Below are positions 39,739 through 45,900 of a DNA stretch of 64,000 nucleotides, piece by piece. The notes under the pieces were generated by a model. It did no database searches and had not been told where the DNA came from. It worked only from the letters and a program-made list of their open reading frames with translations. The position numbers and the translations under genes were made by a program. The stretch's first letter is position 1. The number at the start of each line of letters is the position of its first letter. Origin of the DNA: an uncultured archaeon (GTDB lineage: Archaea > Asgardarchaeota > Thorarchaeia > Thorarchaeales > Thorarchaeaceae); the NCBI GenBank assembly GCA_964558645.1, contig CAZLEV010000001.1, positions 317,568-381,567 of the forward strand, in the 5' to 3' direction.

Positions 39739-40638
39739 GTGATACGAATCGGGTATGCATGCATGAATACCTCTATCGAGTGTACATCGGCAAGCACCTT
39801 CAGGCTCGCTTCGTGGTCGGAGACGCGCTTCAAAGAGACCGTCAAGCAGAATCTCGACTGCTTGGAGAAGATCCTTCAGTGGAACATCAAGCATAACATT
39901 TACTTCTTTCGAATCACTTCAGACCTGATTCCTTTCGCGAGCCATCCTATCTGCTCTGTGGACTGGCAATCGATCTTTTCTGAGGGGTTTGCTCGAATAG
40001 GCGACTTCGTACGGGCAAACGGCATGAGAGTATCTATGCATCCTGGTCAGTACACTGTTCTTAATTCGAACCGGCATGATGTTGTCGAGAGGAGTATTCT
40101 CGAACTCGAATACCATACCAATGTTCTGAATCTCATGAATCAAGGCCCTGATGCCAAAATCGTCCTACACGTTGGAGGTGTCTATGGCGACCGGGAGAAT
40201 GCCATGAGGAGGTTCGTTGAGACCTATCAAGGTCTGCCGGATTCAGTAAAGGATCGGTTGATTATTGAGAACGATGAGCGGAGTTACACCGTCGCAGACT
40301 GTATCTCTATCCATGAAGAAACAGGTGTTCCCGTTGTGCTCGACAATCTGCATCACGAGGCAAACAATCATGGTGAGAGCATAGTCACTGCCTTCGAAAC
40401 GGTAAGGCGTAGTTGGACCTCGTCAGATGACCCTCCAATTGTTCATTACAGCACTCAAGAACCGGGCGGGCGGCCTGGAAAGCATGCTCTATCCATCGAT
40501 TCTCAACATTTTCAGACATTTCTCGATTCGTTTCGTAGATATGACTTCGATGTGATGCTGGAGGTCAAGGACAAAGAACGCTCTGCCATCGAAGGCATCA
40601 GGGTGCGAGAGATGATTGAGTCCTATAATGAAGCCTGA
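39739..40638 (+). CDS. uvsE: UV damage endonuclease UvsE/UVDE
   Basis: IGYAC, FFRITSDLIPFASHP, SMHPGQY..LNS, HVGG.YG, IENDE, DNLHH, VMLEVKDKE. Confidence 0.95.
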   Translation: MIRIGYACMNTSIECTSASTFRLASWSETRFKETVKQNLDCLEKILQWNIKHNIYFFRITSDLIPFASHPICSVDWQSIFSEGFARIGDFVRANGMRVSMHPGQYTVLNSNRHDVVERSILELEYHTNVLNLMNQGPDAKIVLHVGGVYGDRENAMRRFVETYQGLPDSVKDRLIIENDERSYTVADCISIHEETGVPVVLDNLHHEANNHGESIVTAFETVRRSWTSSDDPPIVHYSTQEPGGRPGKHALSIDSQHFQTFLDSFRRYDFDVMLEVKDKERSAIEGIRVREMIESYNEA

Positions 40639-40724: not shown

Positions 40725-41240
40725 ATGCGGCCGAAAGTCTACAAGGTGATTCTCGTTGGTGAGGGTGGTGTCGGCAAGACGAGTCTGGCCTTGCGATACA
40801 CAGACGACAGGTTCGAGCAAGACATGCGTATGACAATTGGGGTGAACTTCGCATCTAAGAAGGTCTGCACTGACATGGGCGACATCACTCTGCTACTCTG
40901 GGATCTCGGCGGCCAACCACGGTTCCAAGAAGTAGTGTCTGATTATTTTCGGGGGGCAAGTATGGGTGTGGCCGTCTTCGATGTGACTCGGAAGTTCACT
41001 CTGTATAGGCTAGACGATTGGATTGATCGGCTCAGAAAGGCGGCTCCTCAATGCAGACTGGTTCTTGTTGGGAATAAAATCGACGAGCGAGATGAGGGGG
41101 AAGGTGTGTCACCTGAAATGGGCCGCAGCCGCGCACAGGAACTGTCTGCGCCGTACTTCGAGGTATCAGCAAAGACCGGCGAACATGTAGATGAGATGTT
41201 CAACTATGTTGCTCGACGGCTCTGCCAGACCCAGATGTGA
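40725..41240 (+). CDS. Rab-like small GTPase (Ras superfamily)
   Basis: G1 GEGGVGKT, G2 TIGVNF, G3 WDLGGQ, YFRGA, G4 NKID, G5 SAK. Confidence 0.95.
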   Translation: MRPKVYKVILVGEGGVGKTSLALRYTDDRFEQDMRMTIGVNFASKKVCTDMGDITLLLWDLGGQPRFQEVVSDYFRGASMGVAVFDVTRKFTLYRLDDWIDRLRKAAPQCRLVLVGNKIDERDEGEGVSPEMGRSRAQELSAPYFEVSAKTGEHVDEMFNYVARRLCQTQM

Positions 41241-41248
41241 TAGGCTTT

Positions 41249-42616
41249 TCAGTCTTGCTTCTTAGTTAGAAGCCTGTCAAGTCTACCCGTCAAGCCCAAC
41301 CAGAAGAGAGCAATCGCAGCTGCCTGAATTGCGTAAACCAGATCAGTTCCAAGCATCTCCGGAAAGAGAGAGTAGAGTGATTTCACTGTCAGCATAATGA
41401 GAAGCCCGATAGACAGTCCTAAGGCTCGTAGTGCGGCACCGCCCTCTCTTCTTGCTCTGATGTACACCATTCCGAATATTGCGGCCGGAATGAGAAGAAG
41501 GAACATGATCCCGGCTCCGAATGATAAGAGGACCAGCGGATTATCAAGAGGATTCAGTGGATACGAGAACAACAGAACCATCATAGCTGGAACTGCTACC
41601 AGAACAGGCAAGAGAACTACGTTCTTCCATCCCGCAGCCAAAATCGCTGTTGCCGAGAAGGTAACGCCAAGTATTAACCCCATAACATAGTCAATGTAAA
41701 GCGCATTCACGAAGGTGACGTAACCTCGTGGGGCGATCAGGCCAACTAACTGACTTACTGCTGTCGTGCTTGTCCCAATTGTGAGTAGTGCAGTCGGAAT
41801 TGCCTTCGACTCCTTCCAACGTCCATAGAGAAACGCCGATGTTCCCGCGCCCATAGCTGCACCGGCAGCGCCGGTGGCGATAAGCAGTGCTGAAGATACA
41901 TCAGTACCTGTCAGTTGCGTTTGAACCATGGCCAGAACCACGGCGGGAGCTGCATACGCAGCACCGTAACCAATGATTTCAAGGGACAAGTTCATCTCCG
42001 GGCGGGCAAAGGCAAAGAAGATCATTGCTGGCCCCATAAGGACGAAGAACATCAGGACAATGATAACATCTGACCAGACAATGTGGTAGAGCAGATACAC
42101 ATGGGCAAGCTGGACAATCAGTGCTGCGGCAATCGACAGGCTTGTTGGTCGACGAGTCGCCCGTGCGATGTATCCAAAGAGAAGTGATTCGCCAAGAAGA
42201 AGCATCATGAGCATGACCTCCTGAAGCTGGATGATGCCTGGGAGCGTTGGGTATAGTGATGGGATGAAGACCGTGAGAAGGAGAACCAAAACAAACGCGC
42301 CAACACCCACGTAGTATGACATACGAGCATTCACAATCTTGAGGGCTGCACCCGCAATCACAATTGCTTCTATTATCATCATCAGTCTTGGGATGATTAG
42401 GGGATAGTAGATCCCAATGCTTGTTGCCAGCGAAATCCACATCATGGAGAGCCCATAGACAAAGAAGGCTCCTGCAATGATGTACAATAGCGATAGGGCT
42501 GACCTAGTTTCTTCATCAGCTGATACTGATCTTCTGTAGACATAATGCGACATTGATCCTACCGCAAATAGCATCGCGATGCCGACATAGAACAGGTTGG
42601 TTTCATATATTGTCAA
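41249..42616 (-). CDS. Polytopic membrane protein with about 15 TM helices, apparently 7TM + linker TM + 7TM
   Basis: Hydropathy read by eye; the two halves share corresponding motifs and basic loops. Confidence 0.7.
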   Translation of the reverse strand: MTIYETNLFYVGIAMLFAVGSMSHYVYRRSVSADEETRSALSLLYIIAGAFFVYGLSMMWISLATSIGIYYPLIIPRLMMIIEAIVIAGAALKIVNARMSYYVGVGAFVLVLLLTVFIPSLYPTLPGIIQLQEVMLMMLLLGESLLFGYIARATRRPTSLSIAAALIVQLAHVYLLYHIVWSDVIIVLMFFVLMGPAMIFFAFARPEMNLSLEIIGYGAAYAAPAVVLAMVQTQLTGTDVSSALLIATGAAGAAMGAGTSAFLYGRWKESKAIPTALLTIGTSTTAVSQLVGLIAPRGYVTFVNALYIDYVMGLILGVTFSATAILAAGWKNVVLLPVLVAVPAMMVLLFSYPLNPLDNPLVLLSFGAGIMFLLLIPAAIFGMVYIRARREGGAALRALGLSIGLLIMLTVKSLYSLFPEMLGTDLVYAIQAAAIALFWLGLTGRLDRLLTKKQD

Positions 42617-42628
42617 GACTTGTTCCTC

Positions 42629-43069
42629 CTAGAATACTCTCTTACCCCACTCTTTTGCCTGACTCTTTAGACTGTCAAGCTCCTTTTCGATATCCGATTT
42701 CATCTCTTCCCTACCCTCCTTTGTGAGTGCCTCGGTCTCAATCATCTCTTTCGCAAGCGTGAGCACGCCGTCGTTGAGACCATGTTTCACTCGGTTTCGG
42801 ATGAGTTCAGTTACTGCTCGGTTTTTTGCTTCTGCATCTGAATCATCTTCGCTGTGCAACGTGACGATGTAGTTATCTCCAGCCGTGGATATGAGCAACC
42901 GCGTCTTTCCGAACTTGAGTTCTTTCACCTGGTTTCCCGATATCCTCTGAACGAAGACCTGAATAGCCGATAGGAATCCTCCGAACAGCGCTGTGTCTCC
43001 TCTGAGTGAGTCGAATCCCACCGATGCGACCGTTACCCCTGCTTCGTCTACAACGCATATGCCTTCCAA
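42629..43069 (-). CDS. Longin/roadblock-like domain protein
   Basis: ICVVDEAGVTV (two strands), D.ALFGGFLSAI..F helix, three strands, then helices: the longin-fold pattern. Confidence 0.7.
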   Translation of the reverse strand: MEGICVVDEAGVTVASVGFDSLRGDTALFGGFLSAIQVFVQRISGNQVKELKFGKTRLLISTAGDNYIVTLHSEDDSDAEAKNRAVTELIRNRVKHGLNDGVLTLAKEMIETEALTKEGREEMKSDIEKELDSLKSQAKEWGKRVF

Positions 43070-43118: not shown

Positions 43119-43379
43119 TCAGAGTGTGTCGAGCCAGCTCTTAGTTTTGGCAACCCCATCCACCTTTTCGCTCTTTGCTTCTGCTGCGGCCTCTACATCC
43201 CGCACCTGAAAGTTCGCATCCACAAAGGCAACTAGCGCATGGCCCTTCTCGCACCTGCATGTGACCATGACAGGATGTCGTCTTGCGCTGAGAATCGTAG
43301 TGTCCTCAACCTCAAGCCGGACAAGAGTTCCATCGGCACATGTTGGGCATGAGAAAGGTTGTAGTATTCTTATGGCCAA
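43119..43379 (-). CDS. Small Zn-binding protein (CxxC...CxC...H) with FVDANFQVR motif
   Basis: CPTC, CRCEKGH; co-oriented with the longin-like and 7TM genes. Confidence 0.7.
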   Translation of the reverse strand: MAIRILQPFSCPTCADGTLVRLEVEDTTILSARRHPVMVTCRCEKGHALVAFVDANFQVRDVEAAAEAKSEKVDGVAKTKSWLDTL

Positions 43380-43455: not shown

Positions 43456-44886
43456 CTAATGATTGTGATGATGGTGATGCTCCTCACCCAGAGGTTGCAT
43501 TCGTCCGAACGCACGTTGCACAATCTCCGGCAATGCTGGATGGATGTGCATGGCCCTAAAGACAGGAACATAGGACCTCCTCTCTGTGTACATCAAGTTG
43601 ATGACCTCTTGGATGAGAATTGGTGCATGGGGTCCTATGATGGTAGCACCGAGGATTTCTTGGGTCTCTGCATCACATATCACTCGAGCAAATCCGGGCG
43701 GGTATCCCATGGCGGCACCTTTGGCAACATCTCCGTAGCCTGCCTTTCCTACGAGGAGACTTCGGTCTGTGGTTTTTGCCTCGGCTAGAGTCATCCCTAC
43801 AGTGGCAATCTGAGGGTTGCTGAACACCGCTCTGGGAACTGCATGATAGCTCATGGAGAGGAGCTCAGGTTCCTCATCCTTTTTCGCATTCATTGTCTGC
43901 TGGATATTGTACCACACGACCTGTGACTCATCGTTTGCCACGTGGCGAAACATATGACGACCTATTGCGTCACCAAAAGCCCAGATTCCTGTCTTTGTTG
44001 TCCTGAAGTAGTCATCGACTTTGATGAAGCCGTGATCATCTGTGTCAACTCCAGTATTCTTGGGTTTGAAGAGGTCTGCGTTTGACCGCCGTCCTGCTGC
44101 TATCAGAATGTGTTCTGCATGGAACTCGGTTTCATTGCCGTCAGAGCGATTCTTGGCAACGATGATCTTCTCTTCGCCCTCTTCTCGTGCCTCAGTGACT
44201 TCCCAGTTGGTGAATACCTTCATTCTTTTCGATAACTCATCCTTGAGTAGTTCTGAGACATCTTGGTCCTCATTCTTAACAAGATACGGATTCCTGCCGA
44301 CTATTGTTACATCGGTTCCCACTGCAGAGAAGAAATGCCCAAGCTCGGCTGCAATGTACCCTCCGCCAACGATGATCATGGAGTCGGGTTTTTCCTTCAG
44401 CTCAAGGACGGTCTTATTTGTTAGGTACTCGATATCCTCAATTCCCTTGATTGGCGGAATGAGTGGCCGTGAACCCGCAGCAAGTACGATGATGGGCGCG
44501 GTGATCTTCTCATCTCCTACTTTCATCACATGATCCTCCACAAACTCTCCGGTCACCTGATACCAGTCGTAGCCCTCTACGGACCGAATCGATTCGCCCA
44601 TCTTCTCCGCCTCGCCCAGAGTTTCTTCTCTCATGCGGTTCATGAGTTTCTCAAAATCAACTGAGTTCACTTCTGCGCGAAGATTGATTCTCTCGGCATG
44701 CTGTATCTGTGTAATCGTGTCGGCGACATAGGTGAGTATCTTTGTGGGAATACATCCCCGCAACAGGCATGTGCCTCCGAGCGCCCCCCTCTCGACCAGG
44801 GCCACTTCCATGCCTTGTTCGAAGGCGGCCGAAGCGATATTCATGCCAGCACCTGCACCGAGAACCATCATGTCGTATTCTTTCAT
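43456..44886 (-). CDS. Flavoprotein disulfide reductase (lipoamide dehydrogenase family, mycothione reductase-like) with His-rich C-terminal tail
   Basis: GAGAG, GGTCLLRGCIPTK, GGGYIAAE, HVAN.E, HIHPALPE, tail EEHHHHHNH. Confidence 0.88.
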   Translation of the reverse strand: MKEYDMMVLGAGAGMNIASAAFEQGMEVALVERGALGGTCLLRGCIPTKILTYVADTITQIQHAERINLRAEVNSVDFEKLMNRMREETLGEAEKMGESIRSVEGYDWYQVTGEFVEDHVMKVGDEKITAPIIVLAAGSRPLIPPIKGIEDIEYLTNKTVLELKEKPDSMIIVGGGYIAAELGHFFSAVGTDVTIVGRNPYLVKNEDQDVSELLKDELSKRMKVFTNWEVTEAREEGEEKIIVAKNRSDGNETEFHAEHILIAAGRRSNADLFKPKNTGVDTDDHGFIKVDDYFRTTKTGIWAFGDAIGRHMFRHVANDESQVVWYNIQQTMNAKKDEEPELLSMSYHAVPRAVFSNPQIATVGMTLAEAKTTDRSLLVGKAGYGDVAKGAAMGYPPGFARVICDAETQEILGATIIGPHAPILIQEVINLMYTERRSYVPVFRAMHIHPALPEIVQRAFGRMQPLGEEHHHHHNH

Positions 44887-44952
44887 ATCTCTCTCAGTTC
44901 GTAATGTAGCTGATAAGGCTGGTGATATCTGTCTCAAGGGAAAGGCAATGCT

Positions 44953-45900
44953 TCATGCCTCATGAGAAACATTCTGTTCTTTGTCGTCGGATTGCCTATA
45001 TCGGTATACTACAATGGCCAGTATGATGATGGGCGCAGAAATCGCTATTCCAATCAGACGTGAGTCGACGGCGGTCGTCTGAACCTCATCGCACGCCAGC
45101 GATAGTTCCCCCGCATACATATCCATCATGACCGGTTCAGGAGCGGAGCCATTGCAGAGTTCCTCGTACTCGGGAAATGCAGGGAAGACAGTTTCTACGA
45201 TATACTCTTGGGTCTGTGGAAGCGCAAACAGAAAGGCCTCTTCAACGCTCACATCTCCATTCCCATCGGCATCTGCGCTTTCATTCAAGAACGCTGAAGT
45301 GAAGAAATGGTTGAAGACCTCTCCAATCACCGGTAGATTCTCCTCTGGAATGCCGGCCCAAGCCAACTCGTCTCTCTTCACCGACCCAACGCGAATCTCG
45401 GATCCAGCACCAGGGATTCCGGCTATGAACTCGCCAGCGCTGCACGCCGAGAAGACCATAAGTCTCTTTGCACTCGGAATCTCTTCCCATGCTGCTCCAA
45501 CAGCAATTCCATCACCTATGACAGTTCTCAACCAGTTTCCGTGAGAGAAGACGAAAAGAACAACAACATCATTGTCGTCAGATTTCTCTACGAGCCACTC
45601 AATCCCGTCCACCAACCCGGGACGCGTGATTTCTCCACGGAGGATGTTGATGTGACTGGCAGGCCATCCAAGTGAACGAAGTGTGTCATCCCATTTCTCA
45701 CTGTCGGCATAGCCGGTTGGAATGTCGCTCCAGCCCTCTGGATAGTAGAGCATCTCCATAATGACTGCCCACCCTTCAACTGGATTTGAATGTGCAGAAA
45801 CAGACTGTACTAATAGAGGTGATAACCCGTGAGCGAACAAGAGCCCAATCACCATAGTGAGGGCCAATCTTCTCTTGCTATTGGAGGGCACAGGATTCAT
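44953..45900 (-). CDS. Secreted, C-terminally anchored caspase-like (clan CD) cysteine peptidase
   Basis: Signal peptide; VVLFVFSHG and VFSACSAG (His/Cys dyad); DADGNGDVSVEE Ca-binding loop; C-terminal TM. Confidence 0.75.
   Translation of the reverse strand: MNPVPSNSKRRLALTMVIGLLFAHGLSPLLVQSVSAHSNPVEGWAVIMEMLYYPEGWSDIPTGYADSEKWDDTLRSLGWPASHINILRGEITRPGLVDGIEWLVEKSDDNDVVVLFVFSHGNWLRTVIGDGIAVGAAWEEIPSAKRLMVFSACSAGEFIAGIPGAGSEIRVGSVKRDELAWAGIPEENLPVIGEVFNHFFTSAFLNESADADGNGDVSVEEAFLFALPQTQEYIVETVFPAFPEYEELCNGSAPEPVMMDMYAGELSLACDEVQTTAVDSRLIGIAISAPIIILAIVVYRYRQSDDKEQNVSHEA

Follow-up and report, generated by a model that had tools for sequence, protein, structure and literature searches.

Introduction

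The actinobacterial conservon is a gene module that comprises the histidine kinase CvnA, the roadblock protein CvnB, CvnC, and the MglA-family GTPase CvnD (PMC4316618). Judged by gene content, it is the closest described analogue of the locus reported here, which lies in a 64,000-nucleotide stretch of DNA from an uncultured thorarchaeon (the window, i.e., the whole stretch that was analyzed) and holds the genes of a protein with 15 predicted transmembrane (TM) helices, the 15-TM protein, of a longin/roadblock-superfamily protein, of a zinc-ribbon-like protein, and of a Rab-like small GTPase. Both are four-gene prokaryotic modules of a membrane protein, a roadblock/longin protein, a small protein and a Ras-superfamily GTPase, and both often occur as several paralogous copies per genome. 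In contrast to CvnA, a histidine kinase that carries HAMP and ATPase domains, the 15-TM protein has no kinase domain. Furthermore, CvnD belongs to the MglA family whereas the GTPase of the present locus is closest to Rabs, CvnC is not a zinc ribbon, and the phyla differ. The only component shared by the two modules is the roadblock/longin protein, and nothing points to homology between their membrane parts.

The genomes of Asgard archaea hold scores of genes for Rab-, Arf-, and Rag-like GTPases as well as for longin/roadblock proteins, and the partners of these proteins are almost entirely unknown. The corresponding genes lie mostly outside conserved neighbourhoods (bioRxiv 10.1101/2020.10.19.343400). 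Other Asgard GTPase operons were given by Liu et al., the module described here not being among them, and Tran et al. solved structures of Thor-Rab and Thor roadblock proteins without a membrane-protein context. An October 2026 preprint names Asgard-eukaryote ‘GPCR’ (G protein-coupled receptor) and ‘class C GPCR’ structural clusters, with too little detail for a comparison with the 15-TM family. Our literature search retrieved no paper describing the 15-TM module.

In this study, the 15-TM protein, its family and its gene neighbourhood were analyzed. We propose that the protein would be the membrane subunit, as a receptor or a scaffold, of an Asgard-specific module of four proteins including a small GTPase. 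We infer this function with a probability of roughly 55%.

Results

The 15-TM protein gene and its family

The window is part of contig C1 of an assembly of 3.63 Mb in 37 contigs with a completeness of 92.8%. The open reading frame (ORF) of the 15-TM protein is a genuine gene, and the positions of its parts are as follows (7TM, seven-transmembrane).

41249-42616, minus strand: gene of the 15-TM protein, 455 residues, TTG start; the third of a three-gene row
42625..42629, minus strand: GGAGG, a ribosome-binding-like motif read from the sequence, which overlaps the stop codon of the longin gene and stands 8 nucleotides before the TTG of the 15-TM gene
42005..42610, minus strand: 7TM unit 1, residues 3-204; seven helices in the AlphaFold2 model; homologous to unit 2
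41900..42004, minus strand: cytoplasmic loop and linker helix TM8, residues 205-239 (helix 213-233), with the motif S-x-E-L-x-G-Y-G; predicted to lead the chain back to the outside
41252..41899, minus strand: 7TM unit 2, residues 240-455; conserved on its cytoplasmic side are YLYGRWRESR, W-x-R-M-R, and TGRLDR

The TTG start is backed by aligned homologues that begin at the same position. The gap between the longin gene and the 15-TM gene is 12 nucleotides, and the overlap of the GGAGG motif with the longin stop codon would fit co-translation of both genes from one mRNA.

Neither the 15-TM protein nor any of 31 family members matched a Pfam or NCBIfam model, even at E values up to 1. When 1.84 billion representative proteins were searched exhaustively, only 43 relatives were found, the full-length ones nearly all having 444-502 residues, and a word-indexed homologue search returned the protein itself alone. 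The ESM Atlas clusters of the family are from Thorarchaeota.

The AlphaFold2 model, calculated from an alignment of 31 sequences, had a mean predicted local distance difference test score (pLDDT) of 92.6 and a predicted template modelling score (pTM) of 0.89. It contains 15 long helices, namely seven in residues 3-204, one in residues 213-233, and seven in residues 240-442. The longest loop has about 15 residues, a tail of 13 residues follows TM15, and no soluble domain is present in the model. The arrangement of two 7TM units around an extra helix had been proposed in a first-pass annotation of this DNA, which named a transporter fold with 12-14 TM helices as the contrary outcome. The model agrees with the proposed arrangement, and the classical transporter folds recovered in the whole-chain structure search (see below) scored very low.

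Internal duplication

The N-terminal and C-terminal halves of the family profile were compared by hhalign, which aligned them with a probability of 97.4% and an E value of 1.2e-11 (196 columns after realignment). Reversed-sequence controls gave E values of 0.064 and 0.26. A block-shuffle control was discounted, as intact blocks still align (E down to 5e-7), and the reversed controls alone were used. The alignment pairs YVYRRS with FLYGRWKES and LFGYIARATRRPTS with IFGMVYIRARREGG, which is the register that had been read by eye in the first-pass annotation. From these profile data, the 15-TM protein is judged to be a true internal duplication of homologous 7TM units; the likeness of the halves was seen both in the sequence profiles and in separate fold matches of each half to predicted structures. 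To describe it as a built-in heterodimer, as was done earlier, is a reasonable architectural inference.

Single-unit relatives were found in other Asgard families. Specifically, a 208-residue single-7TM protein of genome G173 (L034:806-3257) matches the C-terminal unit with an E value of 8.8e-12. Its gene adjoins a 237-residue divergent longin-like gene (a weak match, E 0.0044) and a 190-residue Rab-like GTPase gene (E 1.2e-26), and this locus may represent an unduplicated form of the module. Additionally, single-7TM relatives of about 260-297 residues occur in genomes G117 and G118 of family f16 (L041, L045, L053), with up to five copies per genome and some tandem pairs. In the families f16 and f11, no longin or GTPase gene was found within 1.5 kb of the single-7TM relatives. 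These relatives would be in keeping with a dimer-forming single-7TM protein as the precursor of the tandem.

A similar architectural solution exists in eukaryotic SWEET transporters, which consist of 3 + 1 + 3 helices with an inversion linker helix. Here as there, two homologous bundles with an odd number of helices are joined by an extra TM helix and take the same orientation, so that a homodimer becomes a single chain. The bundles differ in size (three helices vs. seven), the fold and function are unrelated, and in the 15-TM family the linker helix is the most conserved part. To our knowledge, the 7 + 1 + 7 single-chain tandem is an undescribed route to a fixed 7TM dimer.

Conservation of the four-gene module

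The other three genes of the module are located directly beside the 15-TM gene.

43119..43379, minus strand: zinc-ribbon-like protein (C2CH), 86 residues, whose conserved C-terminal tail contains Trp; gene 1 of the module
42629..43069, minus strand: longin/roadblock-superfamily protein, 146 residues, with a conserved ...EWGKKVF tail; second gene
40725..41240, plus strand: Rab-like small GTPase, 171 residues; convergent with the 15-TM gene, with 8 nucleotides between the stop codons

The family profile was searched against 400 genomes of the phylum, and the 15-TM family was found in 51 of them. It was present in 43 of the 85 genomes of the window's own taxonomic family, in 3/3 and 3/19 genomes of two other families, and as one weak match in a fourth. 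Two or three paralogues of the 15-TM gene per genome are frequent. Gene order was examined at 34 loci (30 from the profile search, three from other families, and one public metagenome-assembled genome (MAG) contig with two copies). A contig end truncates one of the 34; at each of the other 33, the order on one strand is zinc-ribbon gene, longin gene, 15-TM gene, and a Rab-like GTPase gene is adjacent. These loci span three Asgard families.

The position of the GTPase gene defines three arrangements. In type A it is upstream and in type B downstream, both times on the same strand; in type C, to which the window belongs, it is downstream and convergent. Each arrangement corresponds to a single clade on the tree of the 15-TM protein, the window copy belonging to the rarer convergent clade. 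The linkage of the genes has therefore outlived at least two rearrangements.

These data bear on whether the 15-TM gene might stand beside the longin and GTPase genes by chance and have an independent membrane function. In the window, the GTPase gene lies on the opposite strand and is consequently not co-transcribed, and the single-7TM relatives of f16 and f11 lack such neighbours. Against a chance association stand the recurrence of the same neighbours at 33 of 34 loci, in three families and with three different arrangements of the genes, and the short gap to the longin gene with its overlapping ribosome-binding motif. We disfavour this explanation and regard it as highly improbable. The longin protein, the zinc-ribbon protein, and the Rab-like GTPase are instead the obvious cytoplasmic partners of the 15-TM protein, as candidates named by gene order. 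The earlier description of a sensor without cytoplasmic catalytic domain was right in that no soluble domain is present; the protein is not self-contained, being one gene of a conserved four-gene module.

Further modules were observed in the course of the search. In the same genome, 58 kb past the end of the window, contig C1 carries at ~440010-444109 (L058:4010-8109) a zinc-ribbon homologue (profile E 3.6e-9), two neighbouring proteins of very high hydrophobicity (482 and 462 residues), and a Rab-like GTPase (E 4e-21). The two proteins, with about 15 TM helices each, gave no match to the 15-TM family profile in hmmsearch at E values up to 10 and an E value of 0.15 in hhalign; they may belong to a much more divergent double-7TM family. 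The public MAG GCA_013388835.1 contains on contig JACAEL010000018.1 two complete modules within 13 kb (L003:1759-4710 and L003:9939-12136), one of type A and one of type C. In the same stretch, a third GTPase gene is preceded by genes of 115 and 424 residues without an assigned family, and GTPase modules appear to cluster there. In-frame ‘TAG’ in four matches of genus g12 was considered as a sign of recoding and rejected, as the ORF ends show the genes' own stop codons.

Topology and conserved residues

Charge distribution was evaluated in 28 full-length members, with the loops after TM1, 3, 5, 7, 9, 11, 13, and 15 taken as inside loops. The number of lysine plus arginine residues (K+R) averaged 20.9 in the predicted inside loops vs. 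0.86 in the outside loops, with an excess of at least 12 in every member. Because of this excess, following the positive-inside rule, and because of the additional helix TM8, both units are predicted to have the same orientation, with the N-terminus outside and the C-terminus inside. Both the topology and the clustering of basic residues behind TM1, 3, 5, and 7 in the two units had been claimed for the single sequence and proved to be family-wide.

The loop between TM7 and TM8 is basic, and the loop between TM8 and TM9 contains no lysine or arginine in any member. As seven is an odd number, the eighth helix is needed for both units to run from the outside to the inside. This fits the earlier designation of TM8 as an ‘inverter’ in so far as the orientation is reset, with TM8 returning the chain to the outside; the helix is no passive spacer, since it carries the most conserved motif of the family. 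Specifically, E213, where TM8 starts, is the same in all members, and G216 and Y217 are kept in 86-96%. We therefore regard TM8 as part of the functional face.

The columns of inside loops had a mean conservation of 0.47, those of outside loops one of 0.23. Similarly, the length of the inside loops is constant (standard deviation ≤0.9), and that of the outside loops varies (standard deviation up to 4.2). The strongest motifs are all located at the cytoplasmic boundary.

After TM5: LFxYxAxxTxRxTS
Running into TM8: FLxPE...SxELxGYG, with the invariant E213
After TM9: YLYGRWRESR, with the invariant R266
After TM13: WxRMR...GRxRPL
After TM15: TGRLDR

The conserved residues of unit 2 are R266, T275, R397, T443, and G444. 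Within the membrane, P337, P343, P377, F147, A327, and T275 are conserved. A reading as a PAQR-like hydrolase was rejected, as the invariant residues include no conserved His/Asp metal site.

Fold of the 7TM units

The model of the 15-TM protein was compared by VIA-align with 48,161 representatives of the PDB. Residues 238-449 were aligned, and the best 50 matches were judged. These comprised 49 GPCR-type 7TM proteins and one transporter, Ost-alpha/beta (Z 12.2), with Z scores of 11.7-17.7 and 197-212 aligned residues. The leading match was a designed GPCR-like fold (8oyx; Z 17.7, 201 residues, root-mean-square deviation (rmsd) 3.3 Å). Unit 2 matched ADGRL3, GPRC5D, CD97, mGlu1/5, sweet-taste, and GABA-B receptors with Z scores of 13.4-15.2 and class A receptors with Z scores of about 12.

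In the ESM Atlas, the nearest models outside the family were bacterial 7TM modules with HisKA_3/HATPase_c/GAF, GGDEF/MASE3, or HD-GYP outputs, and DUF6962. Matches 2-10 covered 187-211 residues with an rmsd of 3.2-3.4 and TM-scores of 0.59-0.71, normalized by the smaller protein. Unit 1 (residues 4-209) matched a cluster of 265-residue bacterial 7TM proteins over 193 residues (rmsd 3.4, TM-score 0.59); a GPCR-type packing of unit 1 is suggested by this one Atlas match and by its homology to unit 2. The likeness to GPCRs and to HisKA-7TM sensors that had been supposed beforehand is thus seen for unit 2 in the PDB and for both units among bacterial 7TM sensor modules. As the Atlas matches are fused to output domains, such a fold would in bacteria usually feed a cytoplasmic signalling output.

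With GPCRs, unit 2 shares the arrangement of seven helices over about 205 residues (Z 14-17.7, rmsd 3.3-4.3), the predicted orientation with the N-terminus outside and the C-terminus inside, and a conserved cytoplasmic face, here beside genes of G-domain switches. In contrast to GPCRs, the 15-TM family has no detectable sequence relationship, GPCR motifs, or match to Pfam 7tm_1/2/3, combines two bundles in one chain without an extracellular domain, and is linked to a Rab-like small GTPase with a longin partner instead of a heterotrimeric G protein. The bacterial 7TM sensors (HisKA_3/HATPase_c, GGDEF/MASE3, HD-GYP; DUF6962) are the closest predicted-structure matches for both halves; they are likewise prokaryotic and have short outside loops. 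They differ in that a single 7TM unit carries the output in the same chain, whereas the 15-TM protein has two such units, lacks both a fused output and an extracellular sensor domain, and matches no Pfam family of the 7TMR-DISM, MASE3, or HisKA_7TM type.

A whole-chain Foldseek search against the PDB gave no significant match. LYCHOS/GPR155 came first, and was rejected as a relative because an E value of 0.014 and a TM-score of 0.31 are insignificant. LYCHOS is a GPCR-like lysosomal membrane protein that acts on the Rag pathway; its DEP and transporter domains are absent from the 15-TM protein.

The same structure comparisons bear on a transporter or channel that would be controlled by the GTPase or serve as its effector, with the bundles moving a solute or lipid in the manner of Ost-alpha or of nutrient transceptors. 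The many TM helices, the conserved intramembrane prolines, the conserved acidic residue at the start of TM8, and the presence of the GPCR-like transporter Ost-alpha/beta among the fold matches are in line with this explanation, as is the transporter-plus-GPCR fusion LYCHOS/GPR155 as first whole-chain match, albeit with the insignificant values given above. On the other hand, the classical transporter folds MATE, MurJ, CLC, and ABC reached TM-scores of ≤0.17 in the whole-chain search, no Pfam or NCBIfam transporter family was matched, and the conserved module includes no gene of a substrate-binding protein or ATPase. Furthermore, the 7 + 7 carriers of the SLC4/SLC26/NCS2 type have 14 TM helices in repeats of opposite orientation, whereas TM8 and the charge distribution predict parallel repeats for the 15-TM protein. 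No such carriers were among the Foldseek and VIA-align matches shown, an absence that is in itself no proof. Taken together, we consider a transporter or channel quite unlikely.

Candidate partner proteins

In the 86-residue protein, C11, C14, C43, and H47 are invariant and W82 is nearly so among 29 orthologues. Pfam returned weak zinc-ribbon matches only, with Zn_ribbon_Brz in 10 of the 29 members (best E 0.069).

The AlphaFold2 model of the 146-residue protein had a pLDDT of 66.6 (about 80 in the core) and showed the order strand-strand-helix-strand-strand-strand-helix (DSSP). From this model, the protein is predicted to have a longin/roadblock fold, a helix-flanked five-stranded sheet in longin order. 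VIA-align matched it to Asgard roadblocks, VAMP7 longin, MglB, MP1-p14/LAMTOR, and Mon1-Ccz1 (Z 10.3-11.6), and to subunits of TRAPP, CPLANE, and BLOC-3 (Z 9.7-9.9). Below the Pfam cut-off, Fuz_longin_1 (5 of 29 members, best E 0.0016) and MAPKK1_Int (E 0.0077) were found. G11, G30, G31, H72, and W141 are invariant. The longin and zinc-ribbon profiles had no match among PDB sequences. The C-terminus of either small protein is a conserved tail with a tryptophan, ...EWGKKVF in the longin protein (Trp invariant) and ...KxWxDSF in the zinc-ribbon protein (Trp nearly invariant).

As in the eukaryotic regulators of Rab and Rag GTPases that are built on longin platforms, a longin/roadblock protein stands beside a Rab-like GTPase, and the fold of the 146-residue protein matches Mon1-Ccz1 (Z 10.3-10.5, 19-21% identity) as well as TRAPP, BLOC-3, CPLANE, and LAMTOR2/3. 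The eukaryotic platforms are tri-longin heterodimers, whereas the Asgard protein is a single small longin domain with a putative role as guanine nucleotide exchange factor (GEF).

The GTPase matched Pfam Ras with an E value of 3e-42. Its closest solved relative is the Thorarchaeota Rab 7EZB (E 3.6e-33), followed by Rab18, Rab6, and Sec4. The motifs GEGGVGKT (P-loop), DLGGQ, NKID, and SAK are intact, and the C-terminus has no CAAX or CC prenylation motif.

The absence of a lipidation motif raises the question of whether the 15-TM protein might sense nothing and only tether the longin/zinc-ribbon pair, and thereby the lipid-less GTPase, to the membrane, a role like that of lipidated LAMTOR1 for Ragulator or of prenyl groups for eukaryotic Rabs. 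The concentration of conserved residues on the cytoplasmic face, the short and variable outside loops, and the tight gene linkage are also consistent with such a passive anchor. However, 15 helices in two full receptor-type bundles far exceed the needs of an anchor, positions within the membrane are conserved too, and the bacterial proteins most similar in structure serve signalling proteins as input modules. We hold a purely passive anchor to be unlikely, though worth keeping in mind.

The 15-TM protein and the longin protein, each with its own alignment, were also subjected to complex prediction. The score was 0.51 (0.50-0.53 in three runs; best of three controls 0.00), which was rated as ‘weak support’ with no interface reported and is not used as evidence here. 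Of the 80 solved complexes in the calibration, 58 attained the mark, as did 2 of 110 mismatched pairs, and the range up to 0.60 held only seven of the 80 solved complexes together with both mismatched pairs. The pLDDT of the partner was 71-73, and the contacts agreed between runs.

Other genes in the window and genome

Further genes were noted near the module and elsewhere in the genome.

39739-40638, plus strand: UV damage endonuclease UvdE/UvsE (Pfam E 6.5e-67), directly upstream of the Rab-like GTPase gene on the same strand
43456-44937, minus strand: flavoprotein disulfide reductase of the dihydrolipoyl dehydrogenase family (NF004947, 599 bits vs. a cut-off of 592)
44953-45900, minus strand: 315-residue protein with a weak, sub-threshold caspase-domain match only (Peptidase_C14, E 0.0015)

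The reductase has a natural His-rich C-terminal tail, EEHHHHHNH, and no 2-oxoacid dehydrogenase genes were seen beside its gene. On contig C10 (C10:124412-126689, L002), the 16S rRNA match extends over 2278 bases for a model of 1478 positions; the 16S gene therefore probably contains an insertion or intron of about 800 bases.

Discussion

The 15-TM protein shares features with several described classes and belongs in full to none of them, neither to GPCRs nor to bacterial 7TM receptors, inverted-repeat carriers, or conservons. Our proposal of a membrane subunit in a four-protein GTPase module combines the architecture, the conserved cytoplasmic face, and the gene linkage as follows. The tandem of two homologous receptor-type 7TM bundles would form a fixed parallel pseudo-dimer. 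Its cytoplasmic loops of fixed length, the beginning of TM8, and the TGRLDR motif at the C-terminus would make up a docking face, to which the co-transcribed longin protein, and probably also the zinc-ribbon protein, would bind, perhaps with one Trp tail per bundle. The longin platform would then engage the adjacent lipid-less Rab-like GTPase and act on it either as a GEF, as do Mon1-Ccz1 and TRAPP, or in the role of a GTPase-activating protein (GAP), as does MglB. In this way, the membrane protein would bring the GTPase cycle to the membrane. Most likely, it would also link a signal, received within the bundles or the membrane, to nucleotide exchange or hydrolysis. That the 15-TM protein senses anything is a proposal, and we likewise put forward partner binding, the direction of information flow, the assignment as GEF or GAP, and the transmission of a signal by the bundles as parts of a model.

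Several observations weigh against this interpretation. The outside loops have 6-15 residues and are poorly conserved, so that a ligand-binding site is not evident. Neither a GPCR sequence motif nor a Pfam 7TM family was detected in the 15-TM family. Helical bundles can reach Z scores of about 12-15 through common packing (VIA-align itself cautions at about 13); the GPCR-type fold of unit 2 nevertheless carries weight, because the list of matches is uniform and all seven helices are covered. The low resolution of the GTPase tree does not allow co-diversification with the 15-TM protein to be recognized. Finally, two genomes of the same genus (87% and 95% complete) have no detectable copy of the 15-TM gene, which indicates that the module is dispensable.

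Conclusion

From gene order alone, one Asgard GTPase can be given a candidate regulator, an accessory protein that binds zinc, and a partner in the membrane. The last of these shares its fold with the class of eukaryotic receptors by which G proteins are controlled. A more far-reaching version would be a receptor-to-GTPase pathway that runs via a longin exchange factor and in which the 7TM unit has a common origin with eukaryotic receptors of the GPCR type or with LYCHOS-like proteins. We regard this version as very doubtful; if it were true, 7TM-controlled G-domain signalling would predate eukaryogenesis. With four small recombinant proteins, it can be tested whether membrane-coupled control of small GTPases, and perhaps signalling from a 7TM protein to a G domain, may have existed before eukaryotes.

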